A DNA stretch of 32,000 bases. It comes from Candidatus Saccharimonadota bacterium. Lineage in GTDB: Archaea; Nanohalarchaeota; Nanosalinia; Nanosalinales; Nanosalinaceae. Positions within the stretch are counted from its first letter, which is position 1, and every line of letters begins with the position of its first letter. The notes beneath the pieces are model-generated. The model did no database searches and was not told the origin of the DNA. It was given only the letters and a program-made list of their open reading frames with translations. A program made the position numbers and the translations under genes. The stretch is from contig NZ_CP107255.1 in assembly GCF_029232205.1 (NCBI RefSeq), forward strand, positions 330,001 to 362,000, given 5' to 3'. This document shows positions 2,304 to 28,331 of this stretch, one piece after another.

Positions 2304-3077
2304 TCAGTAAGTGAAGTTTATGTCGGCTCTCACCTGTAAATCTTCTTCGGCTGCTGATCCAAAGTACGAGAATCTTTTGATCTTGCCGTTACCTCTGGAG
2401 ATCCATGCATAGGCCTTTGCCTCTTCAAAGCTTGACAGCTCCTGCTCGTCGTCCGTTGAGGCTTCATCATCGCTGACTACGTGGACCTCAAATATGTCTG
2501 CGTAATTTTCTAGGAGGTCTTCTTTGTCTGGCTGAATCTTAACGAGGATTTCCGAACTGTTTTCACCGGTTGTGCCAAGAACTGTACTGTTTCTAAAGTT
2601 AATTCTGTCGACCGCAGATACTGAAAGGCCTAACTCCTTCCTGCTTAAGGACTCAGATATTTTCTCCGAGCTATTTTCCATGTTAACAATTTCGGTTTCG
2701 GTTCTGTCAGGATAGGTTTCTATATTTTTCACAGGTTGAGGTGAATCTTTGGAGCTTTCTCCGAGACCGAAGCCGATACTGGTGATGGATGTAGTGTTCG
2801 AGTAGGATTTGTTGAAAACACCTTCAGAACTCAAATTTAATCTCATCGGAGCTACTGGTGTCCTCATCAAAACTTTGAACTCGGAGCTTATCTCGTAAAC
2901 ACTGTAATTCTGTGAAAAAGCATTATCAAGTAAAGAACCGGCAGATGAGTTAAAACTAATATCTTCATGGCCTGTATCAAAGTTTTTATTCAAGCTGGCA
3001 TCGCCTCCTGAAATACAGCCGGATGTAGCCACAACCAGAACCAAAATACAGATAGGAAACAGTTTTCTTCGTTCCAT
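2304..3077 (-). CDS. Secreted acidic lipoprotein with Tat-like signal, hypothetical (the ORF track extends to 3098)
   Basis: The N-terminus MERRKLFPICILVLVVATSGC combines a twin-arginine motif (RRKLF), a hydrophobic core and a lipobox-like TSGC. The rest is Ser/Glu/Asp-rich with no recognisable family. I chose the start at the Met preceding RR. Confidence 0.55.
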   Translation of the reverse strand: MERRKLFPICILVLVVATSGCISGGDASLNKNFDTGHEDISFNSSAGSLLDNAFSQNYSVYEISSEFKVLMRTPVAPMRLNLSSEGVFNKSYSNTTSITSIGFGLGESSKDSPQPVKNIETYPDRTETEIVNMENSSEKISESLSRKELGLSVSAVDRINFRNSTVLGTTGENSSEILVKIQPDKEDLLENYADIFEVHVVSDDEASTDDEQELSSFEEAKAYAWISRGNGKIKRFSYFGSAAEEDLQVRADINFTY

Positions 3078-3172
3078 AGACAAAAACATATTCTGCAAAA
3101 AATTTTTTCAATCAATTCCCTGGCCTAGAATCAATAACTCACATTTTTCAAAATCTGCCCAGAAACAAGTAC

Positions 3173-4501: not shown

Positions 4502-4519
4502 CTTTTTATTTTCTGACAT

Positions 4520-10540: not shown

Positions 10541-12214
10541 ATGCCAGGCTTAGGAGGACAACCAATTTTCGTAATGTCAGAAGATACACAAAGACAATCA
10601 GGAGAAGACGCACAAGAAAACAATATTAACGCGTGCAAAACCGTGGCAAAGGCCGTAAGAACAACCCTAGGCCCTAAAGGAATGGACAAAATGATGGTAG
10701 ATTCCGTAGGAGACCTAGTAGTCACAAACGACGGTGTAACAATACTAGAAGAAATGGATCTCGAACATCCAGCGGCCAAAATGATGGTCGAAGTCGCACA
10801 GACACAGGAAGAAGAAGTCGGCGACGGAACCACGACAGCAGTCGTCCTCTCAGGAGAACTACTAAAACAGGCAGAAGGCCTTCTAGACCAGGAAATCCAC
10901 CCAACAATAATCACAAAAGGATACAGACAGGCCCGAGAAAAATCTGTAGAAGTCCTCAATGACATCGCTGAAGATGTATCTCTCAATGACGATGATACTC
11001 TTGAAAAGGTAGCAATGACTTCTATGACAGGTAAATCCGCTGAGACAGCAAGAGACTACCTGGCAGAAATCGCTGTAGATGCAATCAAGCAGGTTGCGGA
11101 GGAAAGAGAACATGAATTTGTTATTGATAGAGAAATGATCAAGCTAGAGAAAAGCCAGGGAGGCACAGTCGAAGATACTGAATTAGTGCAGGGAGTAATT
11201 CTGAACAAGGATAGAGTGCACTCTGGTATGCCAACAGAAGTAGAGGATGCAAATATCGCACTTCTCAACGCCGCAATCGAAGTTAAGGAGACAGAGACTG
11301 ATGCAGAAATCAATATCTCTGATCCAAGCCAGATGAAGAACTTTGTTGAACAGGAAGAAAGACAGCTCAAGGAGATGGTAGAGGCTCTGGACGATGCTGG
11401 AGCAGATGTAGTCCTCTGTCAGAAAGGGATCGACGATATCGCACAGCACTACCTCGCCAAGAAAGGAATAACAGCCATCAGAAGAGTATCCACCAAAGAC
11501 ATCGAAAAGCTCTCCCGCGCAACAGGAGCAAACATAGTAACTAATGTAGAAGACATTGAGGCCTCCGATCTAGGAAAAGCAGGATCTGTAGAAGAAAGAA
11601 ATATTGGAGGCAACGCCATGACATTCGTACAGGACTGTCCAGAGGCCAAGTCTGTCTCAATCCTTATTAGAGGAGGAACAGAACATGTAGTGGACGAAAT
11701 CGAACGCGCAATGGAAGACGCAATCGGTGGAGCTGCATCCGCACTCCGAAACGGAAAAGTAGTAGGAGGTGGCGGAGCCACAGAAGTAGAGCTCGCACAG
11801 GAACTCCGCAACTACGCAGACTCCGTAGGCGGCCGCGAACAACTTGCGATCAATGCATTCGCAGACGCCCTCGAAGTAGTACCACGGACACTGGCAGAAA
11901 ACGCAGGATACGATCCAATAGACTCGCTGGTCGATCTCAGAAACAAGCACGACGAAGGAGAAGTATGGGCCGGCCTCGATGTAACTTCAGGTAGCTCACA
12001 GAAACTCTTCGACCAGGGAGTAGTCGAACCACTACAGATCAAGACACAGGCCGTGACATCAGCATCAGAATCCGCAGAAATGATCCTTAGAATCGACGAT
12101 GTCATCTCGGCCTCAGGATTCTCCTCCGATGACAATGAACCACAAGGCCCTCCATCAGGAGGCGCAGGCGGAATGCCTGGCGGAGGAATGGGCGGTATGG
12201 GAGGAATGATGTAG
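10541..12214 (+). CDS. ths: Thermosome subunit (group II chaperonin)
   Basis: [38 protein letters not shown], and a C-terminal GGM tail ([18 protein letters not shown]). Confidence 0.95.
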
Positions 12215-12257
12215 GCCTTCCATTTCCTCTGTTTTTCTCTTCTAATTCTTCCCCTGA

Positions 12258-12266
12258 TTATAAATA
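12258..12266 (+). promoter_or_regulatory. TATA-like TTATAAATA upstream of the pilus-operon leader gene
   Basis: It lies about 45-50 nt upstream of ATG 12310. A T5 run at 12232-12236 follows the thermosome stop, and GAGAGGT lies about 10 nt before the ATG. Confidence 0.4.
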
Positions 12267-12309
12267 CCGGTTTCTACCTATTTTTTCAATAAGAGAGGTT
12301 CTCCTAACT

Positions 12310-12924
12310 ATGTCAAAAAGAAGCGAGGTCGAACTGGGCGACGATGAGGGCTATGATGATTATGAAATGGTCCCTGTAGGCCCAATCAGAAAACTTGAGA
12401 GAAGAATTGATGAACTCCAAGAACAGAATGCACAACAGGCTGGCGGAGGTAATGACGAGCTTATCCGCGATGTTCTTGATATAATGAAGTCCAACCAGAA
12501 AATTGTCAATGATATGACAGAGTCTACACATGAGCTGAAGAACTCTGTCGAAGACCTGACGCACAAGATGGATGAGGTAGTCGACAACATGAACGCGTTC
12601 ATGGATCTACTTCACGAGGCCTCCGAAATGGACATGGAAGGAGAAATGGTTGGCGACATGGAACAGAGAATCGCAGAAGCCATTGGAACAAAAATGGATG
12701 ATGTGGCAAACAATATCCAGAGCTCCAATGAAGAAGTAATCAACCATCTACAAAACATCAATAATAATCTAAGACAGGCTGGCATGCAGGGTAGAAGAAG
12801 GCCTCAACAACAAGCACAGGATAATCCTTCTGGAGGCCAGCAACAAGGCTCAAATCAAAGTTCTGAAAGGGTTAGACAATTAAAAGAAAGATTCGGCTCA
12901 GGAAATGGCAATAACCAAGGCTAG
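12310..12924 (+). CDS. Acidic coiled-coil protein with a Gln/Gly/Asn-rich tail, hypothetical
   Basis: 204 aa with heptad-like stretches (IRKLERRIDELQEQNAQ; ELKNSVEDLTHKMDEVVDNMNAFMDLL) and no hydrophobic segment. It overlaps the first pilin gene by 20 nt. Confidence 0.6.
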   Translation: MSKRSEVELGDDEGYDDYEMVPVGPIRKLERRIDELQEQNAQQAGGGNDELIRDVLDIMKSNQKIVNDMTESTHELKNSVEDLTHKMDEVVDNMNAFMDLLHEASEMDMEGEMVGDMEQRIAEAIGTKMDDVANNIQSSNEEVINHLQNINNNLRQAGMQGRRRPQQQAQDNPSGGQQQGSNQSSERVRQLKERFGSGNGNNQG

Positions 12925-13408
12925 AACAAGAAAGGGCGTTACGCCTGTAGTAGCAACTTCTCTTCTTCTATTAATTAGCGTTGCAACTGTTTCTTCTTCT
13001 GCTATCTTTCTAAGCGGCACTATTGATGACGTGGGCGAAGGAGTCAAGGATAGACTGGGTGTTGATAGTCAAAGAGAAAATGCAGAATTGAGCATTGACT
13101 ATGGTTATAATGGTTCTGATGGCGATATTTGGCTGGATATAACCAATGATGGCAGTATTACGCTAGCTTTACAGGAAGATTCTGTTGATCTATGGAACTT
13201 CTACATAGATGGTCAAAAAGTTAATAACTGGGGTTATGCTTATGGTTTACCCTCTCAAAACGCTATTAATCCGGGAGATACCGTAACAATAGATACTAAC
13301 AGGTCTTATCCTTATTTAACCAACTCTAAGACAGTTACTTTGAGAGGCCAGTATGAGACGTCATCCTCTATAGTATGTAGCAATAGCAATGGAGAGCAAT
13401 CCTGCTAG
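12905..13408 (+). CDS. Archaeal type IV pilin-like protein (class III signal peptide)
   Basis: The N-terminus is MAITKARTRKG|VTPVVATSLLLLISVATVSSSAIFL: a basic leader, Gly, then a hydrophobic helix of the archaeal pilin-N/DUF1628 type. The protein ends ...IVCSNSNGEQSC. Confidence 0.7.
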   Translation: MAITKARTRKGVTPVVATSLLLLISVATVSSSAIFLSGTIDDVGEGVKDRLGVDSQRENAELSIDYGYNGSDGDIWLDITNDGSITLALQEDSVDLWNFYIDGQKVNNWGYAYGLPSQNAINPGDTVTIDTNRSYPYLTNSKTVTLRGQYETSSSIVCSNSNGEQSC

Positions 13409-13458
13409 GCCTAATAAACTATTTAAGTAAGGACGGGGAAACCAAAAATAGTGGTAAT

Positions 13459-13998
13459 ATGTTAACCAAGAGAAAAGGTATCACACCGGTTATTGCTATT
13501 GTGCTCCTATTGCTTATTACTGTAGGAGCTGTCGGTGTTGTATACACGCAGTTCCAGAGCCTTTTAGGTAATCCTGGTGAGCAGGTTGATCAGCAGCAGC
13601 AGGTAAGGCAGACGGAAATACGATTTGACTCCGCATACAAAGCTCAGGACGCAAGCGGCGAGTACTACGTCAATCTCACAGTCACAAATGTCGGGGCTGT
13701 CGCGTGGAATACTTCTGACTTTACCTTGTCTTATGTTCCTGAAGGTACTGGTTCCGCAGTCTCTGGACAGGCACTCCAAGCCACAAAATTCAGTTACAAT
13801 GAAACCAGTGACAACTGCTTCAGCGAGGACAACTCATCACAACTAGTAGACCCTGAAAATGGATACACCTGCAACACAGGCGTAAAATGGCCTAGCGCTA
13901 CAACAACCATAGGATTCTCAATTTCAATGAACAGCGCATCAAAAAGCTGGGGAGTATACACCTGTACACCATCAACTACCAGCTCTGTAGGCTGTTAA
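13459..13998 (+). CDS. Archaeal type IV pilin-like protein (class III signal peptide)
   Basis: MLTKRKG|ITPVIAIVLLLLITVGAVGVVY closely matches the archaeal pilin N-terminal motif. The protein ends ...YTCTPSTTSSVGC. Confidence 0.75.
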   Translation: MLTKRKGITPVIAIVLLLLITVGAVGVVYTQFQSLLGNPGEQVDQQQQVRQTEIRFDSAYKAQDASGEYYVNLTVTNVGAVAWNTSDFTLSYVPEGTGSAVSGQALQATKFSYNETSDNCFSEDNSSQLVDPENGYTCNTGVKWPSATTTIGFSISMNSASKSWGVYTCTPSTTSSVGC

Positions 13999-14021
13999 AC
14001 CGAGAAGTCAAAAGCCACTTA

Positions 14022-14030
14022 TTTTATATT
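14022..14030 (+). promoter_or_regulatory. TATA-like TTTTATATT, about 28 nt upstream of ATG 14054 (leaderless configuration)
   Basis: Position and composition fit. It would drive the tightly coupled 14054-22485 gene string. Confidence 0.45.
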
Positions 14031-14053
14031 CTACCGGAGAACTATGAATAGAT

Positions 14054-14737
14054 ATGAAAGGCCAAACCACAGCAGTCTCTGCAATTCTAGTAACTGGCCT
14101 AACAATTGGCGCAGTAGCATCAGTATATGTATGGGGCTCACCGATTCTGGAAAAAAGAGAAAGCCAGGCCCAGGTCTCAAACATTGAAGGAAACATGGTA
14201 GGCCTTTACGACGAAATAGTCAGTGTCAAGGAATCAGGAGAAGGAACTATAACTCCGTACGAACTTTCCTTATCTAGCTCAGGTTCAGAGATACAGAGCG
14301 TGACCTTAGATCCTGATAATGACTATATCAATATCTCGGTCAGCACAAACGGCGCGGCACCTTACGCAAATAGATGGAGCTTTCTGAAAGGCAATACTCT
14401 ACAAAATATTACTATAGAGCCTGGTGCCGAGACAGGGGCCTACGCAATAAAAGGAAAGGATCTCCCTGGAGTTGTAATGGTAAAATCCTTAGGCAGTTCG
14501 GCCTCACTAATCACATACCGCGTGGAATTCAGAAACATGTACGCAGAAACTCCTTCCGGACCGCAACTAGAGAAAATTGACCTGGTTGCAGCTGGAGGAA
14601 CAGAGGCAGCAGGAGATGTCACAATCAGAATAAGAAATCGCGGGGTAGAAAGAGACACTGGCGCAAATGCTGTAAAACTTCCTTCTGGACGCGAGATTGA
14701 ACGCCAGAGGAATGTCATAAGCCTGGATCTACAATGA
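14054..14737 (+). CDS. Prepilin-like protein (class III signal peptide), 227 aa
   Basis: MKGQ|TTAVSAILVTGLTIGAVASVYVW is followed by a beta-rich soluble domain. Confidence 0.65.
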   Translation: MKGQTTAVSAILVTGLTIGAVASVYVWGSPILEKRESQAQVSNIEGNMVGLYDEIVSVKESGEGTITPYELSLSSSGSEIQSVTLDPDNDYINISVSTNGAAPYANRWSFLKGNTLQNITIEPGAETGAYAIKGKDLPGVVMVKSLGSSASLITYRVEFRNMYAETPSGPQLEKIDLVAAGGTEAAGDVTIRIRNRGVERDTGANAVKLPSGREIERQRNVISLDLQ

Positions 14738-15144
14738 AAGGACAGTTTATAGCTGTTGAAGCAGTAATGTCATTAGGAATAGGCCTTATAGTTGCACTAG
14801 GAATTCTCACAGCTTTCACAGCATTTCAAGGCAGCATAATGGACGACGTAGAAAGAGCCCAGATAAACTCGGTTGAATCCGAAATAAGCGTGGCCCTGAT
14901 GCAGATAGGCTCAACAAATGTCAGCTACGGAGAAGTCTCCTTGGATCTTCCAGAGACACTGGGAGACAGAAGCTACCAGTTGAACTTCGAGAACGGATCT
15001 CTATATATTTTATCCAGCGGAGAGCAGTACAGATCCACATTCGAAAACCTGAATAACACCTACCGATTCACAGGATCGGCCTCCGGAGGAGAAGTAAGTA
15101 TTTTGAAGGAGGGAAACAATTTGATAATAAGTGATAGCGGATGA
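14734..15144 (+). CDS. Prepilin-like protein (class III signal peptide), 136 aa
   Basis: MKGQ|FIAVEAVMSLGIGLIVALGILTAF resembles the QxSxExxxL type. The start forms an ATGA overlap with the upstream gene. Confidence 0.65.
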   Translation: MKGQFIAVEAVMSLGIGLIVALGILTAFTAFQGSIMDDVERAQINSVESEISVALMQIGSTNVSYGEVSLDLPETLGDRSYQLNFENGSLYILSSGEQYRSTFENLNNTYRFTGSASGGEVSILKEGNNLIISDSG

Positions 15145-16853
15145 GTGCAAACTTCAACGGCCTGATCGGTAAGCTTCGAAAGATGAAGCACCCAGAATGG
15201 TACGAAGATGAAGAAGACGAGAGCTCAGGAAACAGTGAAGGAATAGGAGTACCAACACCTGGAGAGTTCAGGCCTGAAATGATAGATGAAGGACAGGAAG
15301 AGGCCGACCTGACAGATGTAGATGTAACTTATCCACTGGTGCCAGCAGATCCAGACGAAGGAGAAGTGGTGTACGCATGGGCCCATATCTACTGGAGTGA
15401 TGAAAAAGAAGAACTGGTTTACAAGATAGTGGAGCCAGAACTAACTCCTAATACCGAACGTCTACTCGACAAGATTCACTCTATAATGCAGAGAAGCTTT
15501 GACATAGACTTCAATAATTTGGAGACAGGAGAGGCCGACGAATATCTTGAAGAGAAGATTGATACCATCGTGGATAAGTACGATCTGAATGTAGATAATA
15601 AACAGAAAGAAGTAATTCGATACTATACTAAAAGGGACTTTGCGGGCCTCGGAAAGCTTCAGCCGCTGATGAACGATACAGAAGTAGAGGATATCTCATG
15701 CGACGGTAGAGGAATCCCGGTTTACGCTTACCACAGAAATCCAAAGTATGGTTCTGTTAAGACGGATATTGTGTGGGAGGATAAGGACGAGCTAGATGCC
15801 TTCGTTATGAAGCTGGCTCAGAGATGTGGAAGATCTATCTCTGTATCCAGTCCGCTTCTTGACGGTTCTCTCCCTGATGGATCTCGTGTCCAGGCCACAT
15901 TGGCAACGGACATTGCCCGTAAAGGATCGAACTTTACAATCAGACGTTTCACAGAGGACCCATTGACGCCTATCCACATGATGGACTACGAGACAGAGAA
16001 TGCACAGATGTACAGTTATCTTTGGACTCTCGTAGAACACGGAAAATCAATACTAATCTCAGGAACAACAGGATCCGGTAAAACATCTCAGCTAAACGCT
16101 TTATCTCTTTTCATCAGGCCTGACAAGAAAATTGTATCGATCGAGGACACGCCTGAACTCAGACTACCTCACGAACACTGGGTGCCGGAAGTAGCTCGTT
16201 CAGGATTCGGATCCTCAGCAGAGGAAGGAGGAGAAGTATCAATGGACAACCTGCTCAAGGAATCCCTCCGTCAGAGACCAGAATACATTATCGTTGGTGA
16301 GGTCCGTGGTGAAGAGGCCTATATTCTATTCCAGCAGATGGCAACAGGCCACACAGGCCTATCTACGATCCACGCCGACAGCCTTGACATGCTTATGGAT
16401 CGTCTGACCACAGAACCAATTAATCTGTCGGGAAGCCTTATTGAGACTCTTGACGTGGTAATGCTTATCTCCAGAATCAGGAGAGACGGAAGCTACATCA
16501 GAAGAATTAACGGAATCTTCGAGGTTATGGGGTACGACGACAGAACAGGGATCGATGCCAACAAAGTATTCGGCTGGGATCCACAGGAAGACGAGTACAC
16601 CATCGAAAATAACTCTCTAATTCTCAAGGATATCGCAGATCAGAGCGGAATGGACTACCAAGACCTGAAAAACGAGGTCAGAAACAGACAACACGTCCTC
16701 AACTACATGCAGGACCAGCAGATCAAACACTACAGAGATGTAGGAGACATGATCTCAAGATACTACTCCAACCCACAGAGAGTAATGGAGAAGATCGGGC
16801 AAACATTTAATGCTGAGAAGGAAGAAGTAGAAAGTAATGCTCGAGAAGTATAA
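15141..16853 (+). CDS. Type IV pilus/archaellum-type secretion ATPase (FlaI/ArlI/PilB, VirB11-like)
   Basis: Walker A is ILISGTTGSGKTSQLNAL, Walker B/Asp box is EYIIVGEVRGEEA, and the His box is ATGHTGLSTIHA. The FlaI-like N-domain carries YKIVEPELT. The N-terminus has an acidic extension. Confidence 0.9.
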   Translation: MSANFNGLIGKLRKMKHPEWYEDEEDESSGNSEGIGVPTPGEFRPEMIDEGQEEADLTDVDVTYPLVPADPDEGEVVYAWAHIYWSDEKEELVYKIVEPELTPNTERLLDKIHSIMQRSFDIDFNNLETGEADEYLEEKIDTIVDKYDLNVDNKQKEVIRYYTKRDFAGLGKLQPLMNDTEVEDISCDGRGIPVYAYHRNPKYGSVKTDIVWEDKDELDAFVMKLAQRCGRSISVSSPLLDGSLPDGSRVQATLATDIARKGSNFTIRRFTEDPLTPIHMMDYETENAQMYSYLWTLVEHGKSILISGTTGSGKTSQLNALSLFIRPDKKIVSIEDTPELRLPHEHWVPEVARSGFGSSAEEGGEVSMDNLLKESLRQRPEYIIVGEVRGEEAYILFQQMATGHTGLSTIHADSLDMLMDRLTTEPINLSGSLIETLDVVMLISRIRRDGSYIRRINGIFEVMGYDDRTGIDANKVFGWDPQEDEYTIENNSLILKDIADQSGMDYQDLKNEVRNRQHVLNYMQDQQIKHYRDVGDMISRYYSNPQRVMEKIGQTFNAEKEEVESNAREV

Positions 16854-17709
16854 AGACTTCTGTTTCAATTTCGCAGGAAAATACGCGCTAGACTCCCTCG
16901 AGTACTTCGAAGGCCTAAGACCACAACTAACAAAAGCCGGCCTCGACATATCCCTCCCGGAATACCTGAGCATGATGTACGTATCAACAGGAGCAACATT
17001 CCTGGGAATATTTCTGTTTATAGGAAGTCTAATGGCCTTAACTACAGGCATAACAGGCCTCATGATAGGCCTGATATTTGCAATACTTACATCAGTATTT
17101 ATTTTCGTTGGATTCTACCTATACCCGAAAATTTTGATCAGCAACAGATCCTCTCAGATCAGGGACACTCTTCCCTTCGCAACAATGTATCTATCAACGC
17201 TTGCAGGAACAGGATCATCTCTTCCAGAAATCTTCCAGAACCTTTCAGAAGTAGACGAATACGGAGAAGTATCAAAAGAGGCCCAGAAAATCAGCAGAGA
17301 TGTAAACAGCCTTGGAATGGATATGACAGAGGCCTTGAAAAGAGCAGCTGAGAGAACGCCGAGCGATGACTTTGAGGAACTTGTGTGGGGAATCAACCAC
17401 TCAATTACAACAGGAGGATCTCTTAGAGAGTTCCTAAGACAGAGAGCAGAAGGCCTGATGAATGATTATCAGAGAAGAGTAAGAGAATTCGCTGACTCGC
17501 TCTCTCTGCTCGTTGAAATGTACATTACGATTGTTATTGTAGGTTCAATTATTTTCACATCGATGAGCGCCGTTATGAGCTCATTCGCATCAATGTCGCC
17601 AGATCTAGTGGTTACGGTACAGGTAATATCGATATTCATAGGCCTTCCTTTAATTTCTGGCATGTTCATAATATTCGTTAGAGGAATCGCGCCAGGAGGA
17701 ATAAGGTGA
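16837..17709 (+). CDS. Pilus platform membrane protein, FlaJ/TadC-like, single T2SSF domain (first half)
   Basis: RDTLPFATMYLSTLAGTGSSLPEIFQNLSE...MTEALKRAAERTPSDDFEELVWGINHSITTGGSLREFL with flanking TM helices. Confidence 0.8.
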   Translation: MLEKYKDFCFNFAGKYALDSLEYFEGLRPQLTKAGLDISLPEYLSMMYVSTGATFLGIFLFIGSLMALTTGITGLMIGLIFAILTSVFIFVGFYLYPKILISNRSSQIRDTLPFATMYLSTLAGTGSSLPEIFQNLSEVDEYGEVSKEAQKISRDVNSLGMDMTEALKRAAERTPSDDFEELVWGINHSITTGGSLREFLRQRAEGLMNDYQRRVREFADSLSLLVEMYITIVIVGSIIFTSMSAVMSSFASMSPDLVVTVQVISIFIGLPLISGMFIIFVRGIAPGGIR

Positions 17710-17716
17710 TGCCAAG

Positions 17717-18769
17717 ATGTTAGACTTTTTCCAGGAAGAAGACTTTCAACCAGGATACTCCCTGACCAAGAAGATAATCTATGGTTCGATGGCTGTAGGA
17801 GCAGCAATAGTCATGGTAGGAGTATTTCTGTACATTCAGGGAGCTGATAGAATCGGTGGAACAGCATTCCTGCTAGGCCTGATGATAGGAGTAGTACCTT
17901 TCGGTATTCTATCCTTCCTCAGAAACAGGGCAGTAAGACAGATGGAGGACCAGTTCCCCTCATTCCTGAAGGATCTGGCAGAGTCCAAGAGAGGAGGCAT
18001 GACAATTATGAAGGCCTTCGAATCCGCAAAAGAGACGGACTACGGCCGATTGAACAGCGAAATTGAGAAAATACACTACGAGCTTACATGGGGAATTCCC
18101 TTCCCTGAAGTAATGGAAAGATTCTCAAAAAGAATGAAAGACTCCGCAGTAATCCAGGAATCCACATCTATTATTATCCAGAGCTTTGAGAGTGGAGGAG
18201 AAATCACAAAGACAATTGAGTCGGTAGGAGACGACGCAACCAAGCTTAAAGAAGTAATACAGGAGAAAGACGCCAAACTAAGACAGCAACTGGTTATCAT
18301 GTACGTCATTTACTTCCTATTCATCGGAATCACTATTGGAATCTACACAATGCTTGCACAGCTACTAGGCCTCGGCAGCCCAGATCCGGGAGCACTCTCC
18401 GGAGTAAAAGAAGTACTCAGCCAGAGTGGAAGCGGAGGAGGCGGAGGATCAGGCCCAACAAACTACTGCAGTGGCAGCATCGCCGCAGCACAACCATTCT
18501 GCTCCACCGCAAAAATCTTCGGATTCGTACCCGCAAACGTAACATCAGACCTTGCAAGCGAATACGCAAACCAGTACAGCTATGGAAGAATGGCTTATTA
18601 CAAATCACTCCTATTCACAATGCTTATGATCCAGGGAGCATGCACCGCAGCAGTAGCAGGTCAGGTATCAGAAGGAAGCCCCAGCGCAGGAGTAAAACAC
18701 GCACTAATCATGCTTCCGCTGGCATTCATCGCATTCATGGTAGCGGTTGCCTCTGCAGGTGTACCATAA
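17717..18769 (+). CDS. Pilus platform membrane protein, FlaJ/TadC-like, single T2SSF domain (second half) with a C-terminal extension
   Basis: EDQFPSFLKDLAESKRGGMTIMKAFESAKE...FPEVMERFSKRMKDSAVIQESTSIIIQSFESGGEITKTIE is followed by a Gly run, a Cys pair and more TM helices. AGGTGA at 17704-17709 lies 7 nt before the ATG. Confidence 0.8.
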   Translation: MLDFFQEEDFQPGYSLTKKIIYGSMAVGAAIVMVGVFLYIQGADRIGGTAFLLGLMIGVVPFGILSFLRNRAVRQMEDQFPSFLKDLAESKRGGMTIMKAFESAKETDYGRLNSEIEKIHYELTWGIPFPEVMERFSKRMKDSAVIQESTSIIIQSFESGGEITKTIESVGDDATKLKEVIQEKDAKLRQQLVIMYVIYFLFIGITIGIYTMLAQLLGLGSPDPGALSGVKEVLSQSGSGGGGGSGPTNYCSGSIAAAQPFCSTAKIFGFVPANVTSDLASEYANQYSYGRMAYYKSLLFTMLMIQGACTAAVAGQVSEGSPSAGVKHALIMLPLAFIAFMVAVASAGVP

Positions 18770-19632
18770 TGAAAGGCCAGTTCAGCATAGAATACTTCGG
18801 ATCAATGGTACTATTTCTCGTAGCGGTCGTAGGCCTATCAACTATCGGAGCCAACCAGGTTCCAAACTTCAGAGACGACGTCCATCAGGCCTCACTTAAT
18901 CTAGAGGCCTATACTCTATCTTCAAGACTTATGAGCCAGCCGGGATATCACAACTTCGATGATGGTGGAACGAACTGGGAGAAAAATATTTCCACTATAC
19001 GGAATACCGAGCAGGTAGGCCTTGCTAACGAGTACAGGGTACTACAGAAAAGAAAGATCGACCAGCTGACAACAGTAGCAGATGACGATCTAAACTACAG
19101 TATTTTCACTGACTCATTTAACCTGGAAAATGACTACAGGATGCGTTTTACGTGGTTCCCTGTAATAACAACCACAAAATCATTCACTAGGACACAGTCT
19201 CCACCAGAAATACAAGAGCCAGCTGACTTCAATTTCGGAAGCTACGACGACGCAGACAATACAGTACATTATAACACCTATGAGTTCATGTCTACAAAAT
19301 ACTGCTTCCTGACAGTCTCTCACAACGGCGTATACGACACAGTCTACAAAACAGAATACAACAGCTCCAGCATATACCCATGCGAATTCAATACAGACAC
19401 TGTTCGCGTGGGCGCAGGAGGCCCAATCACCTTATCAGGATACCAGTTCAGAATAGAGGAAATACAGAACAGGCCTGACCAGCAGGGATCTATGTTTATA
19501 CTGAGAAGACAGATACGTACTTTTGGCGCATCCTTTGATAGAAACGCCAGAACAATCAAACTTAACAGGTATGCGGTTTTAGATGCAAAAGGAGAAATAC
19601 AACCGCTAAGAATAGAGGTGTGGGCATGGTAA
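18769..19632 (+). CDS. Prepilin-like protein (class III signal peptide), 287 aa
   Basis: The internal Met of track ORF 18640..19632 gives MKGQ|FSIEYFGSMVLFLVAVVGLSTIG, a QxSxE motif. Its ATG overlaps the upstream stop (TAATG). The 43 codons upstream encode an Arg/Ser-rich out-of-frame overlap with the platform gene. Confidence 0.65.
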   Translation: MKGQFSIEYFGSMVLFLVAVVGLSTIGANQVPNFRDDVHQASLNLEAYTLSSRLMSQPGYHNFDDGGTNWEKNISTIRNTEQVGLANEYRVLQKRKIDQLTTVADDDLNYSIFTDSFNLENDYRMRFTWFPVITTTKSFTRTQSPPEIQEPADFNFGSYDDADNTVHYNTYEFMSTKYCFLTVSHNGVYDTVYKTEYNSSSIYPCEFNTDTVRVGAGGPITLSGYQFRIEEIQNRPDQQGSMFILRRQIRTFGASFDRNARTIKLNRYAVLDAKGEIQPLRIEVWAW

Positions 19633-22157
19633 GTAGAAAAGGAGCAGGATATGCAATTGAACTAATGGTATCAATATTTGTATTACTGGCCTTTGCAGCA
19701 GGAAGCTTCAATATTCCTGAAAATCAGGACTGGTCCAGCTATCAGGAAGAGATAGCAGCTCAGGATCTCAGCTACTCTCTGAAGAGGACAGGCCACACTA
19801 CTCATTTCCTGAAAAACAGTGAGACAGGATCTCTGAAAACTGCAATTCAAACAATCTCCGCCAGGGATATGCAGGTCTCTGGAACAGTTTCAAATCTTCC
19901 TATCCTCGAAACAGTGGTAGGATATCACACACTGCCCAAGAGAAGATATCCTAATCAGGAACTTCAGAACACGATAACCGACTGTTCGGGAGACCTGGAT
20001 GAACTGGAAAGCGAAGTCGAGTCCGGAGTTCCGATACTACAGACAGATCCTGGAAACTCGAGAGAAGGCCTTCATGACGTAACGCTGTACGTCGGGGACA
20101 CAGATCCAAAAGTATCGGGAGGATTCAACGGCAACACAGATTACGATACTGTGTGGGTTGATAACGGAACAGAATGCCAGTTCACCTCAGATCAAGGCCC
20201 ATTCTACCTTGAGGACTTCTTCCTATGGGGGAACACAACAGAAGACACGCCAGACACATACTACGATATCAAATCAATCAACTCCAATGAAATACAGCTT
20301 TACAAAGCAGATCAGCCTGTAGAAATGCAAAAAATGCTTTCCAACAGAGTTAACGGCATAAAAACACAGACATCTGTTGATACGCTAGCTTTAAACAACG
20401 CAAATCTCTCAAATTACGATATACTAGTATTCAGGGAAGAAGAATCGCTGGATGATATCCAGAACTCAAGAACAAAAATAGAAGACTTCATGAATAGAGG
20501 ATCTGTTCTACTGCTGATGAACTTGCAGGAGACAGATACCAATCACCCATTCGTAGAGGATGTAGGCCTTGAATGGACCTCCTTAAGTCAGGGAGATAAA
20601 ACCACTAGCTGCCCTCACACAGGAGATGTCGTAATCGATGGATCAAACTCGCCATGCACATTCGGGCCAGGAAAACACTTCATGAACAGCCTGGAAATAC
20701 AGGCAACAGGTCAGGTAAACATAAATAGCCAGCCAAGAGCATGTGAAAACATTTTCAGAGGAAGAGGATGCAACGAAACTGACTACGCTCAGTACTCTCC
20801 GAAACTGGTTGTGGAAGGCCCGGTAAACATAGAAGGAACCATAAACGGCGTAGGAGAAGGATTCCAGGCAGACTCTGGAGGACCTTACGGCCCAGGAGCA
20901 GGCTCAAACGGGAGCGATGCTGGTGGCGGAGCCTACGGGGGCGATGGAGGAGGCCCTGGAGGCGGCGATGAGTATGGATTGAGCTTTGGTGCTGACAGAC
21001 TTGGATCTGCAGGAGGATATGACACTGATGGGTTCTACGGTGGAGATGGCGGTGGCAGCGTCTGGATTCAGAGCGAGAGCTTCAGTCTAACCGGACAAAT
21101 TAATGTGGATGGAGAAGATGGAGCCAGCGATGCTGGTGGCGGAGCTGGTGGAAGCGTAAAAATACAATCAGATGAAGTATCCGGCACAGGAGATATCACT
21201 GCTAACGGCGGAGACTCATCTTCAAGCGGCGGTGGTGGTGCAGGAGGCCGAGTACTGGTAAAAAGTGGTTCAGGAGATAACAACTTTAATATTGAAACAG
21301 CAGGAGGCTCCGGAGTCTCTACAGCGTCAGGAGGCTCGGTTGAAAGCCCTCCAGGAATACCAGAGCTAGATAACATGATCGCAGGATTCACAACCACGGT
21401 CTCCGATGAAGCAGATTCCTACTTCAAAGGCCTGAACGGAGATCAGAGAAAGATTTCACTGGTTCCTGGAGGCTGGATAAAATCAGGCGGAGCAGAAACC
21501 GTGACCTCGGATGAAAACTTTTTGTACACAATCAACCAAAGATACAACTCCAACGACTGGAACGCTACCTCAAGAAACATGAACTATCTCTCATCAAGGC
21601 CTCCAGGAGCACCACAGGGAGACCTATACTCTGAAGACGTTCTAACATTCCCTGGCCCAGCCTGCAACGGAAACACATCCTGTGAAGTTGTAAATACCTG
21701 CCTAGGCAACTGTGGATCAGATAGAATAAGAGGCCTGAACGTGGACTTTGATGAGGACGATGACTACAGTGATCCAGGAGAAGGCCCTTTCCTCCAGAGT
21801 GAGAGAGTGGTGATCGCCAACAGAAGCTACCGTGTATCTTTCAACCATAGCTCTGCATGTAACGACGGAAGAGACTGTGCGGGATTTGTGTTTGCTGGCT
21901 CAGATGAGATAGAGCTAATTAACCATAGAACTGATTTCGAAGGATTTCAGGGCCAGAGACTTGCTAGAGCAGCTTATGAGCAAGAATTTGAAACAGATGA
22001 TCTTAAGACATTGGCCTCGACTATTTACTGGTTGAGAGGAGATCAGCTAACATTTTCGCAGGAAGATCAACCTGAATACTCCACAGGAGTGGTAGGAAGC
22101 GTCAAGGAAGAGGTATTTATGCCCTACAAACTGAATCTAAGGTGGTCTAATGAGTAA
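19626..22157 (+). CDS. Large secreted prepilin-like protein with Cys-rich and glycine-run repeat domains (candidate adhesin)
   Basis: MVSRKG|AGYAIELMVSIFVLLAFAAGSF at the N-terminus; the ATG forms an ATGGTAA overlap with the upstream stop. A central Gly-rich repeat region spans about 20850-21350, and Cys clusters lie on both sides of it. Confidence 0.7.
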   Translation: MVSRKGAGYAIELMVSIFVLLAFAAGSFNIPENQDWSSYQEEIAAQDLSYSLKRTGHTTHFLKNSETGSLKTAIQTISARDMQVSGTVSNLPILETVVGYHTLPKRRYPNQELQNTITDCSGDLDELESEVESGVPILQTDPGNSREGLHDVTLYVGDTDPKVSGGFNGNTDYDTVWVDNGTECQFTSDQGPFYLEDFFLWGNTTEDTPDTYYDIKSINSNEIQLYKADQPVEMQKMLSNRVNGIKTQTSVDTLALNNANLSNYDILVFREEESLDDIQNSRTKIEDFMNRGSVLLLMNLQETDTNHPFVEDVGLEWTSLSQGDKTTSCPHTGDVVIDGSNSPCTFGPGKHFMNSLEIQATGQVNINSQPRACENIFRGRGCNETDYAQYSPKLVVEGPVNIEGTINGVGEGFQADSGGPYGPGAGSNGSDAGGGAYGGDGGGPGGGDEYGLSFGADRLGSAGGYDTDGFYGGDGGGSVWIQSESFSLTGQINVDGEDGASDAGGGAGGSVKIQSDEVSGTGDITANGGDSSSSGGGGAGGRVLVKSGSGDNNFNIETAGGSGVSTASGGSVESPPGIPELDNMIAGFTTTVSDEADSYFKGLNGDQRKISLVPGGWIKSGGAETVTSDENFLYTINQRYNSNDWNATSRNMNYLSSRPPGAPQGDLYSEDVLTFPGPACNGNTSCEVVNTCLGNCGSDRIRGLNVDFDEDDDYSDPGEGPFLQSERVVIANRSYRVSFNHSSACNDGRDCAGFVFAGSDEIELINHRTDFEGFQGQRLARAAYEQEFETDDLKTLASTIYWLRGDQLTFSQEDQPEYSTGVVGSVKEEVFMPYKLNLRWSNE
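20850..21350 (+). repeat. Glycine-run coding repeats inside the 845-aa gene, including an exact 20-nt direct repeat
   Basis: There are about three units of about 30 aa: GGDGGGSVWIQSESFSLTGQINVDGEDGAS / DAGGGAGGSVKIQSDEVSGTGDITANGGDSSS / GGGGAGGRVLVKSGSGDNNFNIETAGGSG. The 20-mer agcgatgctggtggcggagc occurs at 20913-20932 and again at 21126-21145. Confidence 0.75.
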
Positions 22158-22485
22158 AAGAAGTAAAGGCCAGTTCATGGTTATCTCGTCTATAATAATC
22201 AGCCTTATTCTAATGGCGACATCTGCTGCAATCACGGATGTTCAAAAGGAGAAGCATACTCCAACGGATAGAGGGCAGTATGTTCAGATGATTAAGAATG
22301 AAGCTAAGGAGGTGGATGCAGGCAATCCTAAAGATATCAGAAACTTCAATAAAATGGTGAACTCCATCGATAAGTATACAGTTAATTCTCAGTACTGGAA
22401 CAGGGATTCGGCAACAGACTGCTTTAATGTAACAATGAGAAGCTCGGATACCGATTTCGATCTAGGTTGCGTGCCTATTGATTGA
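22150..22485 (+). CDS. Prepilin-like protein (class III signal peptide), 111 aa
   Basis: MSKRSKGQ|FMVISSIIISLILMATSAAI. The start forms an ATGAGTAA overlap with the upstream gene. The 3' end overlaps the convergent rfcL by 11 nt. Confidence 0.6.
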   Translation: MSKRSKGQFMVISSIIISLILMATSAAITDVQKEKHTPTDRGQYVQMIKNEAKEVDAGNPKDIRNFNKMVNSIDKYTVNSQYWNRDSATDCFNVTMRSSDTDFDLGCVPID

Positions 22486-23668
22486 ACTTTCTGATAAATT
22501 CAACTTCATCCTCTTCAAGCTCCAGTTCCTCTATAACCTCGCTATCACCGCTCTCTATCATTTCAGCTATGAAAGGCAGCTCTCTAACAGACTCACGTCC
22601 AGAAATATGAAGTTTCTCTCCTAGCTTGGAAGATATAGATTTCAACTTGTTCCTAGAAGCTCGAGACTGACCCATCTTCTTAATCTTCGAAGGATACTGA
22701 TACTTGGTCCAACCACTGTACTTTTCGGCCTTGCTCAACGCAACACCAACAGTTGAGAAACTGTAGACATACTTCAGAAGCTTCCAGTTCTGGCTCTTCA
22801 TAATCCTGCCGTTAAACAGATCTGCCTTTGAAACATATTCGTAGGCATTCGCAATATCCTCTTTCCTCTTGTACTCGCGGGGAACATTCTCTCTAATCCA
22901 CTGCATAAACGTCTCTGCATCTTCATCAAGATTTTCTGTGGCCTGACGAGCATTGTCAGGATTCTTGGTCTTGAAAATAATCTTCAGAGAATCAAAAATC
23001 TCCTGACGATTATCTCTGCTAGCAATAACGTCAAGATCATCAGTAGTAATTTTATCCTTGCCAAGGGCCACGGCCTCAAGATCGTTAATCGCTGAACGCA
23101 TCTGCCCACCGGCCTGACGAGCAATCCTCTTCGGCACACCATCCTCATATTCAATTCCTTCTTCCTCCAGAATCTCCTTCAGATGGGCCGCAATCGAATT
23201 AGTATGCACAGAATCAAGCTTTACAGTCTTGGAAATATTTCTGAGATTTCTGATACTGTTAGCGTAAGCATCGTTAGCTGTCATAACTACAGGGAAACGA
23301 GACTCCTGGACAATCCTCTTCAGCTCGGCAGCTCCTCCGCGATCAGTAGAACTCATGCCATCAACTTCATCAATTAAAATCAGTTTCTGACCGCCAAAGA
23401 AAGAGGCCTGACGGGTAGCTTCTTTCAACTCTTCCTTTAACTTGGACTTTGTACGTACATCGGATGCATTAGTCTCGACAAGCTCGTAACCTAGATCGTT
23501 AGCCAGGGCCTCAACAAGAGAAGTCTTCCCTGTACCGGCCTGACCATGCAGAAGAACAGGTTTGTCTCCACTCTCCCAGTCTTTAATCCATTCCTGCAGC
23601 TCCTTCTTCTGATTCGAAGCTCCACGATATTCTGAAAGACTTTCAGGCCTGTATTTTTCTACCCACAT
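22475..23668 (-). CDS. rfcL: Replication factor C large subunit
   Basis: MWVEKYRPESL, Walker A LLHGQAGTGKTSLVEALA, LILIDEVDGM, and the typical archaeal RFC-L length and C-terminal acidic tail. Confidence 0.9.
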   Translation of the reverse strand: MWVEKYRPESLSEYRGASNQKKELQEWIKDWESGDKPVLLHGQAGTGKTSLVEALANDLGYELVETNASDVRTKSKLKEELKEATRQASFFGGQKLILIDEVDGMSSTDRGGAAELKRIVQESRFPVVMTANDAYANSIRNLRNISKTVKLDSVHTNSIAAHLKEILEEEGIEYEDGVPKRIARQAGGQMRSAINDLEAVALGKDKITTDDLDVIASRDNRQEIFDSLKIIFKTKNPDNARQATENLDEDAETFMQWIRENVPREYKRKEDIANAYEYVSKADLFNGRIMKSQNWKLLKYVYSFSTVGVALSKAEKYSGWTKYQYPSKIKKMGQSRASRNKLKSISSKLGEKLHISGRESVRELPFIAEMIESGDSEVIEELELEEDEVEFIRKFNQ

Positions 23669-23692
23669 GGTGTTACGCTACCATCACGCAAT

Positions 23693-23711
23693 AAGCCGCA
23701 CTGAGCGGCTT
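23693..23711 (-). other. Perfect 7-bp hairpin between rfcS and rfcL
   Basis: aagccgc-actga-gcggctt lies in the 63-nt rfcS-rfcL spacer, about 24 nt upstream of the rfcL ATG. Confidence 0.5.
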
Positions 23712-23731
23712 CTGATTCTTGATTTTATCAT

Positions 23732-24682
23732 TTAATTATTCTCCAGGTTTCCGATTTTGGCCAAGAGAGATTCGATCTGGATGTCGCTGCTTCCTCCTTC
23801 TGCAATCCTGAATTCGAACTCCCCGAGATGTTCAACGATCTCAAGCTTGGCATCATCGCTGATATCAAGGTCAAAAACCTCTCTGTGAATCGAATTAATC
23901 ACATCCTGGCCATCAAGGCCTCTGTTGATCATTATCTCGGCAAGATCTTCACGAGCCTCAATAAAGTCGCCGGCAAGAGCCTTATCAAGTATTTCTCTGA
24001 TTTCATCAGGTCTAAGAGAGGCTGCAACTGCGTAAATATCTTTTTCCTCTATTTCATCGTTCTGTATGGACGCGGTCTGAAGCACGTTGGTAACTCTTCT
24101 TAGATCACCGTCCGAGACTCGCATGATTGCGTCGATAGCGTCTTCTGAAATTTTGAAGCCTTCTTCTTTTCCAAGTCTCTGGATGTACTCCTCAACTTTA
24201 TCCTGTTCCAACCTGTTAAATCTGAATACTGCGCACCTGGACTGTATAGGGTCGATTATCTTTGAAGAGTAATTACATGAAAGTATGAAACGGCAGTTAT
24301 CTGAGAACTGTTCCATTGTTCTTCTCAAGGCCTGTTGTGCATCAGAAGTAAGTGCGTCGGCCTCATCAAGGAAAATAATCTTGTAATCTGCATTAATAGG
24401 TTTTGTACGGGCAAAGTCCTTGATTTTTTCTCTTACTACGTTGATTCCTCTCTCGTCGGAGGCGTTAGTTTCCATAAAATTCTGTTTCCACTCATCGCCG
24501 TAGAGATCTTTAGCCATGGCAATAGCGGATGTGGTTTTACCTGTTCCTGCAGGCCCTGCAAACAGGATGTGCGGTACTGAGTCCTCCTCTACGAAAGCGC
24601 TCAGTCTGTCAACAATGTTGTCCTGTCCAACTACTTCATCAAGGCTGTCAGGCCTGTACTTTTCTGTCCAGATGCTTATCAA
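23732..24682 (-). CDS. rfcS: Replication factor C small subunit
   Basis: IWTEKYRPDSLDEVVGQ, Walker A LFAGPAGTGKTT, IIFLDEADALT, and SRC (QSRCAVFRF). The TTG start is forced because an in-frame TAA lies two codons upstream. Confidence 0.92.
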   Translation of the reverse strand: MISIWTEKYRPDSLDEVVGQDNIVDRLSAFVEEDSVPHILFAGPAGTGKTTSAIAMAKDLYGDEWKQNFMETNASDERGINVVREKIKDFARTKPINADYKIIFLDEADALTSDAQQALRRTMEQFSDNCRFILSCNYSSKIIDPIQSRCAVFRFNRLEQDKVEEYIQRLGKEEGFKISEDAIDAIMRVSDGDLRRVTNVLQTASIQNDEIEEKDIYAVAASLRPDEIREILDKALAGDFIEAREDLAEIMINRGLDGQDVINSIHREVFDLDISDDAKLEIVEHLGEFEFRIAEGGSSDIQIESLLAKIGNLENN

Positions 24683-27491: not shown

Positions 27492-28331
27492 ATGAATAGA
27501 ACCTATGCAGAGGCCTCAATCACGTTAACACTTGGACTTCTAACAGTAATAACAGGTTACATAGCCGGTTTCTCAAGGCCCGCTGCATACTTCATGATAC
27601 TACCGATATGCGCCTCATTCGGATTCGCAGCATACATCTCCAGCGAAGGATTCAACAAGGCCTCACTAACAGCACTACCATTACTTGTTTTCGCACTACT
27701 CGGTGGCCCTACAGCAATCTACGCAGGAATCACCGCAGTAGGGGTAGTACTTACATCAGTCTTCGCAGGAGGAGAAAAATTCCGATCCTACTACGCATCC
27801 ACAAGAGTACCTCTAGCAGTCATAGGAGTAGGCCTCTCAGTAATCATAGTTTTCACTGTAATGACCAACGCAGGCCTCCAGCAAAAAGTTACTGACACAA
27901 CAGCGGATCTGGTAGGCAGCGAGGCAGAAAGAGCCCTCAACAAAAGTAATGTTGTGTCCTCGCAACGCCAGCAGTACAAAAGTCTTGTAGGTTCAACAGC
28001 AAATACAACCATTATCTACACAAAGGCCTACGTGCTCAATGATACTAGAGATGATCTCAGCGGATCAGATCTTCAGGCAGTGAACACAGCCTTCGATGAT
28101 GCAAGAGACAGGGTCTCAGAAAGAATGACAAACAGCACTGCATCAAGCGCTCAATCTTTGGATGTCTCCGAAAGAGTCTCCGATGTAGTCAAAGGAGAGC
28201 TCAAAGGAATGAGATTTCTGATCTTTATACCATTCATTCTCTCCTCTGTAATGCTTATGCAGCCAGTAATAGGCCTTTTAACAGCATTATTTGCTAAAAT
28301 TTACGCTACAGCGGAGACAAAACTGATCTAG
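27492..28331 (+). CDS. Integral membrane protein, hypothetical
   Basis: 279 aa with 4-5 N-terminal TM helices, a polar Ser/Thr/Asp-rich loop of about 110 aa, and a C-terminal TM helix. I recognise no family. Confidence 0.55.
   Translation: MNRTYAEASITLTLGLLTVITGYIAGFSRPAAYFMILPICASFGFAAYISSEGFNKASLTALPLLVFALLGGPTAIYAGITAVGVVLTSVFAGGEKFRSYYASTRVPLAVIGVGLSVIIVFTVMTNAGLQQKVTDTTADLVGSEAERALNKSNVVSSQRQQYKSLVGSTANTTIIYTKAYVLNDTRDDLSGSDLQAVNTAFDDARDRVSERMTNSTASSAQSLDVSERVSDVVKGELKGMRFLIFIPFILSSVMLMQPVIGLLTALFAKIYATAETKLI

Follow-up and report, generated by a model that had tools for sequence, protein, structure and literature searches.

The DPANN archaea, to which the Nanohaloarchaeota belong, are for the most part symbionts of small cell and genome size, and they need physical contact with a host that they recognize and hold. 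Eleven genes that lie together in a 32,000-nucleotide stretch of contig NZ_CP107255.1 (positions 330,001 to 362,000, forward strand; hereafter the window) are analyzed here for what they build and what the product may do. An earlier note, made from the sequence alone, had read them as a self-contained and seemingly novel type IV pilus-like operon of a small halophilic, possibly symbiotic archaeon that might use it for attachment. The host is indeed such an organism, Candidatus Nanohalovita haloferacivicina (genome 1.047 Mb), one of whose proteins is 100% identical to the ATPase of the locus. The analysis confirms the region as a genuine assembly locus of the type IV pilus-like kind, with eleven genes. 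That it encodes an assembly machine of the type IV pilus kind is very probable. With moderate confidence, we further read it as a vertically inherited DPANN filament system of the kind described as "Locus 1", with adhesion to the host as its main function; this function is less certain than the identity of the machine, although attachment is still the most plausible role, as the note had supposed. The locus does not represent a new kind of system: it is the Locus 1 orthologue of another cultivated species, and the details added here are incremental.

The eleven open reading frames (ORFs) occupy positions 12310 to 22485, all on the plus strand, and are named g1 to g11 (a slash marks the predicted cleavage site):

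g1, 12310-12924, plus strand: soluble coiled-coil protein of 204 amino acids, the "CCP" of Hamm et al. 2024
g2, 12905-13408, plus strand: prepilin-like protein of 167 amino acids, RKG/VTPVVA, with a C-terminal Cys pair
g3, 13459-13998, plus strand: prepilin of 179 amino acids, RKG/ITPVIA
g4, 14054-14737, plus strand: minor-pilin-like protein of 227 amino acids, MKG/QTTAVSA, DUF7289-like
g5, 14734-15144, plus strand: minor-pilin-like protein of 136 amino acids, MKG/QFIAVEA, Glu at +6, DUF7266 family
g6, 15141-16853, plus strand: assembly ATPase of the PilB/VirB11 family, 570 amino acids
g7, 16837-17709, plus strand: TadC/FlaJ-like platform protein of 290 amino acids, N-terminal-half type
g8, 17717-18769, plus strand: TadC/FlaJ-like platform protein of 350 amino acids, C-terminal-half type
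g9, 18769-19632, plus strand: minor-pilin-like protein of 287 amino acids, MKG/QFSIEYF, QxSxE motif, Glu at +5
g10, 19626-22157, plus strand: large modular prepilin-like protein of 843 amino acids, MVSRKG/AGYAIE, with an alternative GTG start at 19620
g11, 22150-22485, plus strand: minor-pilin-like protein of 111 amino acids, MSKRSKG/QFMVISS

All eleven co-directional genes stand where they had first been placed, and every junction was reproduced exactly. The g1/g2 junction is a 20-nucleotide overlap, followed by gaps of 50 nucleotides between g2 and g3 and 55 nucleotides between g3 and g4. From there on, the genes are tightly packed: ATGA overlaps join g4 to g5 and g5 to g6, g6 and g7 share 17 nucleotides, and a 7-nucleotide spacer with aaggtga separates g7 from g8. 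The g8/g9 overlap is TAATG, that of g9 and g10 is ATGGTAA (given a g10 start at ATG 19626), and that of g10 and g11 is ATGAGTAA. The 3' end of g11 overlaps the convergent RFC large-subunit gene by 11 nucleotides. One size needed correction, since gene callers and NCBI start g10 at ATG 19626, which gives 843 rather than 845 amino acids.

The core of the machine, an ATPase with two single-domain platform proteins, is as first described. The g6 protein matches T2SSE (E 2.3e-33) and PilB3_C (30.7 bits, cut-off 27), and its catalytic motifs are intact: a Walker A motif (GTTGSGKT), an Asp box, a Walker B motif (IIVGEVRG) and a His box. Both g7 (E 6e-19) and g8 (E 1.7e-14) match T2SSF. In comparisons with models of the archaellum platform protein ArlJ, g7 aligns to positions 6-234 of a 555-position model, and g8 aligns to positions 266-460 of a 555-position and 187-382 of a 465-position model. 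Because they match complementary N- and C-terminal halves, we take the two proteins to make up one platform; g7 is a separate gene in all orthologues and most relatives. Two separate TadC-like genes likewise stand beside the ATPase in the Epd pili of Methanococcus maripaludis and in bacterial Tad pili, and g9 shares with those systems a QxSxE-type class III motif, as in Pfam PF04021. Unlike them, the window locus has no FleN/TadZ-type ATPase and no peptidase. Makarova et al. 2016 reported two TadC components in clade 1 and in many clade 2 loci, and noted two tadC genes in many euryarchaeal loci. As an observation apart, many related ATPases are 1000-2100 amino acids long, with their similarity to the query broken up into two or three stretches, and the RFC small-subunit ORF of one orthologous locus, L006, comprises 1062 amino acids (17899-21087); both observations suggest inteins.

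Could such a machine be a reduced or divergent archaellum that rotates and confers motility? The two have much in common, including a homologous ATPase and platform, class III N-termini and, in g2 and g3, an archaellin-type beta-sandwich. Database entries label the proteins FlaI, FlaJ and FlaF, the FlaI model is the best NCBIfam match of g6, and the paper on the Ca. Nanohalovita haloferacivicina genome speaks of archaella genes, counting ten "archaella and filament" genes without analyzing them. However, g6 scores 407.5 bits against the FlaI equivalog NF058587, whose cut-off is 550. Twenty related ATPases, taken from an exhaustive search of representative genomes and from metagenomic loci, all in contexts that are not of the archaellum type, score 362-457 bits and none reaches 550, in a comparison that rests on the curated cut-off, with no bona fide ArlI among the scored sequences. 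In the PDB, the best match of g6 is the GspE of A. fulgidus (2OAP, 371 bits) ahead of the FlaI of S. acidocaldarius (268 bits), whereas bacterial CpaF reaches no more than 146 bits. No window protein matched the families of the KaiC-like ArlH, of ArlC/D/E or of archaellins, which bears out the reported lack of a KaiC-like ATPase, and the platform is split and falls short of the curated ArlJ threshold. On these grounds we rejected the archaellum, a very improbable reading, and agree with the note that the system is type IV pilus-like. Hamm et al. 2019 reached the same conclusion for the FlaI-, FlaJ- and archaellin-annotated proteins that they found in the proteome of Ca. Nha. antarcticus, which they considered to be pilus homologues. 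Separately, the sister species Ca. Nanohalococcus occultus has a second locus, SVXNc_0962-0965 (PMC10266531), with FlaI, a RecA-superfamily (KaiC-like) ATPase and two FlaJ genes, and the KaiC-like partner missing from the window locus may belong to this other pilus-type locus ("Locus 2").

The substrates of the machine are recognizable by their N-termini. We defined the class III pattern as a leader of 3-15 residues ending in K or R followed by G or A, then 22 residues with at most one charged and at least ten strongly hydrophobic, and applied it to every possible start in all 95 window ORFs of at least 60 amino acids. It recovered all seven proteins to which class III-like signals had been attributed, together with only three others (two antisense ORFs and one 72-amino-acid ORF). 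Orthologues, drawn for each family from as many as 14 other genomes, keep the class III N-termini, with K-A in place of K-G in some lineages.

Two of the seven, g2 and g3, are paralogous (hhalign 99.7%) and share a conserved terminal Cys pair; the N-terminus of g2 and its C158 and C167 are invariant among homologues. An AlphaFold2 (AF2) model of g2 is a beta-sandwich with a predicted local distance difference test (pLDDT) score above 90 at residues 60-167. We read both as pilins because they carry a canonical K-G motif and a pilin-type helix; g3, in addition, exceeds the cut-off of the archaellin/pilin N-terminal domain TIGR02537 (22 bits, cut-off 20), and it matches UpsA (E 1.2e-5) and Pilin_N (E 6e-3). 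The N-terminal helix of g3 is near-invariant across the phylum, and one metagenomic relative, L064, carries three tandem g3 copies. We regard g3 as the best candidate for the major filament subunit.

Transcription provides a second line of evidence on g3. Three putative TATA-like elements were located:

12256-12268, plus strand: putative TATA-like element gattataaatacc, about 45 nucleotides upstream of g1
13417-13428, plus strand: putative TATA-like element aactatttaagt, upstream of g3
14018-14031, plus strand: putative TATA-like element cttattttatattc, about 25 nucleotides upstream of g4

Such motifs stand within otherwise unconserved spacers. The motif ATTATAAATA(C/G) occurs upstream of g1 in 11 of 12 loci, with a divergent form (ttatttatacc) in L006. 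A TTAT(A/T)TAA-type motif precedes g3 in most orthologous loci at a variable distance from the start codon; it could not be discerned in L011 and L016, two loci with an uncertain g3 start. Across the 13 loci compared, TTT(T/A)ATAT(T)C or a similar sequence is found roughly 25-45 nucleotides upstream of g4. Because these motifs are conserved before g1, g3 and g4, the sequence suggests three transcription units, g1-g2, g3 and g4-g11. The claim that the locus is one coupled unit is thus only partly upheld: coupling from g4 to g11 is consistent with the junctions, whereas three TATA-like promoters speak against a single unit for the whole locus. The division into three agrees with this translational coupling and with the transcript profile of a co-culture of Ca. 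Nanohalococcus occultus, in which all eleven orthologues, assigned by gene position, are transcribed. SVXNc_0825, at the g3 position, is the maximum of the locus at 4503 reads per kilobase per million mapped reads (RPKM), compared with 334 RPKM at the g2 position and 2695 RPKM for the thermosome gene. Proteomic data for Ca. Nanohaloarchaeum antarcticus likewise include several Locus 1 products, coiled-coil proteins among them (Hamm et al. 2024, PMC11291902).

The remaining five substrates, g4, g5, g9, g10 and g11, are accessory prepilin-like proteins. In the window, g4 narrowly misses the cut-off of PF23960 (E 8e-6; 26.0 bits, cut-off 27); DUF7289 is matched by eight scanned members of the g4 family (best E 7e-7), and a profile derived from haloarchaeal DUF7289 proteins matches 12 of 14 g4 sequences, that of the window included, with only 42% in hhalign. 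The g5 protein lies just under the Pfam cut-off of PF23928 (E 9e-5), twelve scanned members match DUF7266 (best E 1.1e-8), and hhalign aligns g5 with haloarchaeal DUF7266 over its full length at 92.9%. On these profile comparisons, g4 and g5 belong to the haloarchaeal pilus-associated families DUF7289 and DUF7266, respectively. A literature search for the DUF family names gave nothing.

Such an assignment does not extend to g9, g10 and g11. Orthologues of g9 keep its N-terminus, and in the metagenomic loci L022, L024, L064 and L101 a g9-like gene comes after the second TadC gene, yet g9 has no Pfam or NCBIfam match. A profile of two haloarchaeal DUF7287 proteins finds g9 orthologues weakly (E 0.0065-0.012 in a 93-sequence set), and Pfam DUF7287 is matched by two scanned members whose gene family of origin the output does not give. 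An attempt to equate g9, g10 and g11 with DUF7287, DUF7288 and DUF7261 did not establish a correspondence: hhalign values were at most 8%, small haloarchaeal profiles matched single orthologues only, at E 6e-4 to 1e-2, and the matches that tie g9 and g11 to these families are weak and scattered. The view that this subunit set is unmatched elsewhere fails for g4 and g5; for g9, g10 and g11 no counterpart is established.

The large g10 protein matches no Pfam family. Conservation among 26 homologues, mostly of 569-611 amino acids, extends over its N- and C-terminal domains, and the window protein has one further feature:

20604-21377, plus strand: glycine-rich, lineage-specific insert in g10, 258 amino acids (residues 327-584)

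Of the 26 homologues that were aligned, eight carry this insert, namely the window protein and seven others, and the short forms lack it; the homologue P0293 has a different insert at another site. Glycine makes up 25.6% of the insert against 13.3% of the whole protein, a bacterial "beta strand repeat-containing protein" is among its weak sequence matches, and AF2 predicts strand-rich repeats. We consider g10 a candidate tip or adhesin subunit. The N-terminus of g11 is also conserved in orthologues, and the proteins of L004, L005, L014 and L016 are about threefold longer (285-313 amino acids); an ILEI domain (PF15711) is found in three scanned members of the g11 family (best E 5.3e-9). This extension is a second variable surface module of the locus.

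Several small prepilin-like proteins accompanying one large one are also found in the minor-pilin/PilY1 priming complex of bacterial type IVa pili and in GspH-K of the type II secretion system; the window has four small and one large, some with Glu at +5 or +6. The likeness is a functional analogy only, and no sequence or fold similarity was detected. Archaeal loci with five or more minor pilins were likened to these complexes by Makarova et al. 2016 as well.

The leading gene, g1, encodes a protein with a near-invariant core, a variable Q/S/G-rich linker and a conserved C-terminus. It contains no hydrophobic segment: the maximum Kyte-Doolittle mean over 19 residues is 0.07, and at most 0.28 in 13 orthologues. 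Only generic coiled-coil matches were found in Pfam and the PDB. ArlX is matched at E 0.017, as a coiled coil; ArlX has a membrane segment. Hamm et al. 2024 (PMC11291902) drew a parallel between the coiled-coil proteins and sigma-1, a viral attachment protein, which the g1 profile matches at E 0.31, no better than other coiled coils. From its sequence, g1 is probably cytoplasmic, and this location fits better than a surface attachment fibre because the protein has no membrane segment and no export signal and is strongly conserved. An intracellular coiled-coil protein was described in one haloarchaeal pilus type (Makarova et al. 2016).

Taken as an adhesive filament system, the locus might work as follows. 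A prepilin peptidase encoded elsewhere would cut after K-G and remove the short leaders; g7 and g8 would form a heterodimeric platform, like TadB/TadC, and a g6 hexamer would drive subunit insertion. The filament would consist mainly of g3, which we propose as the major subunit because it has a putative promoter of its own and because the same position gives the highest transcript in a relative, with g2 as a further subunit in smaller amounts. The minor-pilin-like g4, g5, g9 and g11 would make up an initiation or tip complex with the large g10, whose variable inserts may contact the haloarchaeal host, and g1 would act on the cytoplasmic side of the machine.

Several observations weigh against this reading. 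The locus is known from its genes and their expression, and the filament is only predicted. Cleavage at K-G is predicted from the pattern only, and no window ORF of at least 110 amino acids matched the prepilin peptidase family Peptidase_A24. This agrees with the absence of a peptidase reported earlier, but the locus cannot then be called self-contained: a peptidase would have to act in trans. Text searches of the literature and of the supplements of two papers found no statement on a prepilin peptidase in this nanohaloarchaeal group. The AF2 model of g10, of moderate quality (pLDDT 65), has no significant fold match in the PDB and no known adhesin fold. A tip-complex role of g9, g10 and g11 is suggested by their position and by analogy, and only weakly can they be connected with DUF7287, DUF7288 and DUF7261. 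The most similar PDB folds of the g2 model are not filament subunits but stator proteins of the archaellum, namely FlaG (5TUH, E 2.5e-6) and the FlaF/FlaG complex (6PBK). Finally, in L022 and L023 no g2- or g3-like gene lies between the coiled-coil gene and g4, and the filament subunit can therefore be encoded elsewhere.

The last two points could mean that g2 and g3 are an ArlF/ArlG-like pair anchoring the machine in the S-layer, with the filament subunit encoded at another site. The fold matches of g2 mean that the supposed lack of any FlaF- or FlaG-like gene cannot stand as worded, while the absence of the other archaellum accessory genes does. The published annotation of such a protein is "FlaF", g2 and g3 are adjacent paralogues as ArlF and ArlG are, and there are weak matches to the NCBIfam ArlF and ArlG models. 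Those matches, however, reach only about 20 bits against a cut-off of 110, and archaellins and archaeal type IV pilins come next among the fold matches of g2, almost as good (E 1e-4 to 1e-2). In sequence, g2 scores 14.6 bits against the archaellin family PF01917 (Arch_flagellin; cut-off 29.5), which three scanned members match with a best E of 4.6e-4. An anchor pair is also hard to reconcile with the K-G motif and pilin-type N-terminal helix of both proteins, the tandem g3 copies and the high expression of the g3 positional orthologue. We consider it improbable.

A further alternative keeps the machine and changes its product: in place of a long adhesive pilus, it would build only a short pseudopilus, a piston or conduit like those of type II secretion or competence systems, through which substrates are secreted, or DNA, lipids or nutrients taken up, where symbiont and host touch. 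Five minor-pilin-like genes stand beside one or two of the major type, Glu occurs at +5 or +6 in g5, g9 and g10, and some relatives lack a major pilin gene in the locus. The organism needs lipids, nucleotides and amino acids from its host, and DNA import has been suggested as a role of the pili in other DPANN archaea. On the other hand, among the genes of the locus, transcription in a relative is highest at the g3 position, and the triplication of g3 in L064 is usual for major filament subunits; nor is a secreted substrate or a DNA-binding component evident in the locus. We consider a pseudopilus unlikely. More speculatively, the locus could be a conserved host-contact machine of cluster-2 DPANN, dynamic or of the pseudopilus type, in which g10 selects the host, g1 controls or couples the machine and the apparatus helps to open or feed a cell-cell connection for lipids, nucleotides or DNA. 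We hold this to be rather doubtful; if it were true, the deeply conserved neighborhood of thermosome and RFC genes would single out the locus as one of the most ancient symbiosis-specific gene sets of archaea.

Position and gene order of the locus are widely kept. A scan of one genome per species yielded 15 Nanohaloarchaeota loci; wherever the flanks are complete, g1-g11 follow one another in the same order between the thermosome and RFC genes. Compared with the window, the ATPases are 70-91% identical, the platform proteins 54-90%, g1 50-85% and the seven prepilin-like proteins only 26-72%; a conserved scaffold with variable pilins has likewise been described elsewhere (10.1101/2025.08.05.668663). 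A metagenome scan with a profile of distant ATPases gave 80 loci, five of which (L022, L023, L024, L064 and L101) carry parts of the same array: the coiled-coil gene, pilins in some, g4-like and g5-like genes, the ATPase, two TadC genes, a g9-like gene and a large prepilin-like gene. Their ATPases are 44-50% identical to the Aenigmarchaeota query ATPase. A thermosome gene lies upstream of the coiled-coil gene in four of the five and adjoins it in three: g1 homologues sit directly beside it in L022, L023 and L064 (hidden Markov model E 1e-14 to 2e-25), whereas a small ORF intervenes in L101 (E 1e-9), where two RFC genes follow the array. These relatives are not halophilic, and the thermosomes of L022, L023, L064 and L101 are only 56-59% identical to that of the window (10541-12214). 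The location between the thermosome gene and the convergent RFC genes (22475-24682) is an unusually deep archaeal synteny with no apparent functional reason.

Two loci stand out in this set. L014 (JBLGBK010000003.1) has the complete locus and flanks with an ATPase 79% identical to that of the window, on a contig labelled "MAG: Colwellia polaris"; this bin is probably mislabelled or contaminated. In L015 (Ca. Nanosalinarum sp. J07AB56, GL982569.1), a truncated ATPase of 390 amino acids, a partial g7 and g10/g11-like fragments lie between the expected flanks, where g1-g5, g8 and g9 were not detected; either a faulty assembly or genuine gene decay could explain this state.

The same synteny bears on whether the pilus genes are an island recently acquired from the haloarchaeal host. 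Haloarchaea such as Haloferax mediterranei (pHME505) and Halobaculum halophilum (plasmid) have loci in which PilB and PilC are followed by DUF7287, DUF7288, DUF7261, DUF7266 and DUF7289, probably one of the euryarchaeal types with its own pilin set of Makarova et al. 2016. They share with the window PilB3_C, Pilin_N-type pilins, DUF7266 and DUF7289, and five class III proteins other than major pilins, a likeness that could point to transfer. There are also differences. Haloarchaeal ATPases are about 830-990 amino acids long, against 570 in the window, and PilC is one fused gene rather than a split platform; the accessory genes all lie downstream, whereas g4 and g5 precede the ATPase gene in the window, and the haloarchaeal loci lack a coiled-coil gene. 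Identity between their ATPases and that of the window is only about 40%, and the two fall into separate clades: in a neighbor-joining tree, built without support values, the metagenomic relatives are sister to the nanohaloarchaeal group and haloarchaeal PilB lies elsewhere. The GC content is even across the window, with the locus resembling its flanks, and throughout the phylum, as in the non-halophilic relatives, it keeps its place between thermosome and RFC genes. We reject recent transfer from host to symbiont on composition, deep synteny and the ATPase tree, and give it next to no credence.

Hamm et al. 2024 (Nat Commun, PMC11291902) described two type IV pilus-like loci conserved across cluster-2 DPANN. 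Their Locus 1 (Fig. 4) comprises a coiled-coil protein, FlaF, PilA, CpaF and TadC beside GroEL (thermosome), GatE, an NTP hydrolase and Mpg, and the window has the same components and the same neighbors (GatE, P-loop NTP hydrolase, thermosome/GroEL). All Locus 1 features are present in the window and in the complete Nanohaloarchaeota loci, and part of them in L022, L023, L064 and L101. The novelty implied by the earlier note is thereby lost: the gene order is common in the Nanohaloarchaeota and already described, though not characterized by experiment. The main text of that paper names five component types, compared with eleven genes here, and we found no published account of the DUF families of g4 and g5, the paralogy and fold of g2 and g3, a cytoplasmic g1, the g10 insert or the three promoters. 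This locus is the most conserved candidate for a surface machine in the Nanohaloarchaeota and DPANN, and its products are also expressed. To what was known, our analysis adds testable predictions: that g3 is the major subunit, that g10 with its variable inserts determines host specificity, that the five accessory prepilin-like proteins, partly related to DUF7266 and DUF7289, form an initiation or tip complex, and that the coiled-coil protein works inside the cell and not as a viral-type attachment fibre.

The surroundings are housekeeping genes, as had been noted. Upstream lie GatD, a P-loop kinase-like protein, GatE and the thermosome; downstream follow the RFC large and small subunits on the opposite strand, a kinase, thioredoxin, MscS, ThiF and Lhr. 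No tRNA and no Rfam family was found in the window, and a scan for sigma-70 promoters and intrinsic terminators gave counts at chance level with models that are not meaningful for an archaeon. Two further proteins without a family match, both unlike a prepilin peptidase, are an acidic protein of 264 amino acids with a lipobox-like N-terminus, VATSGC (2304-3098, minus strand), and a membrane protein of 279 amino acids with hydrophobic ends and a polar middle (27492-28331, plus strand). Near the start of the window, a 72-amino-acid ORF with a hydrophobic N-terminal region (1653-1871) overlaps by 4 nucleotides an ORF of 134 amino acids (1868-2272) that matches UbiA at 25.8 bits, under the cut-off of 34.2; together the two may be a split or frameshifted prenyltransferase gene.

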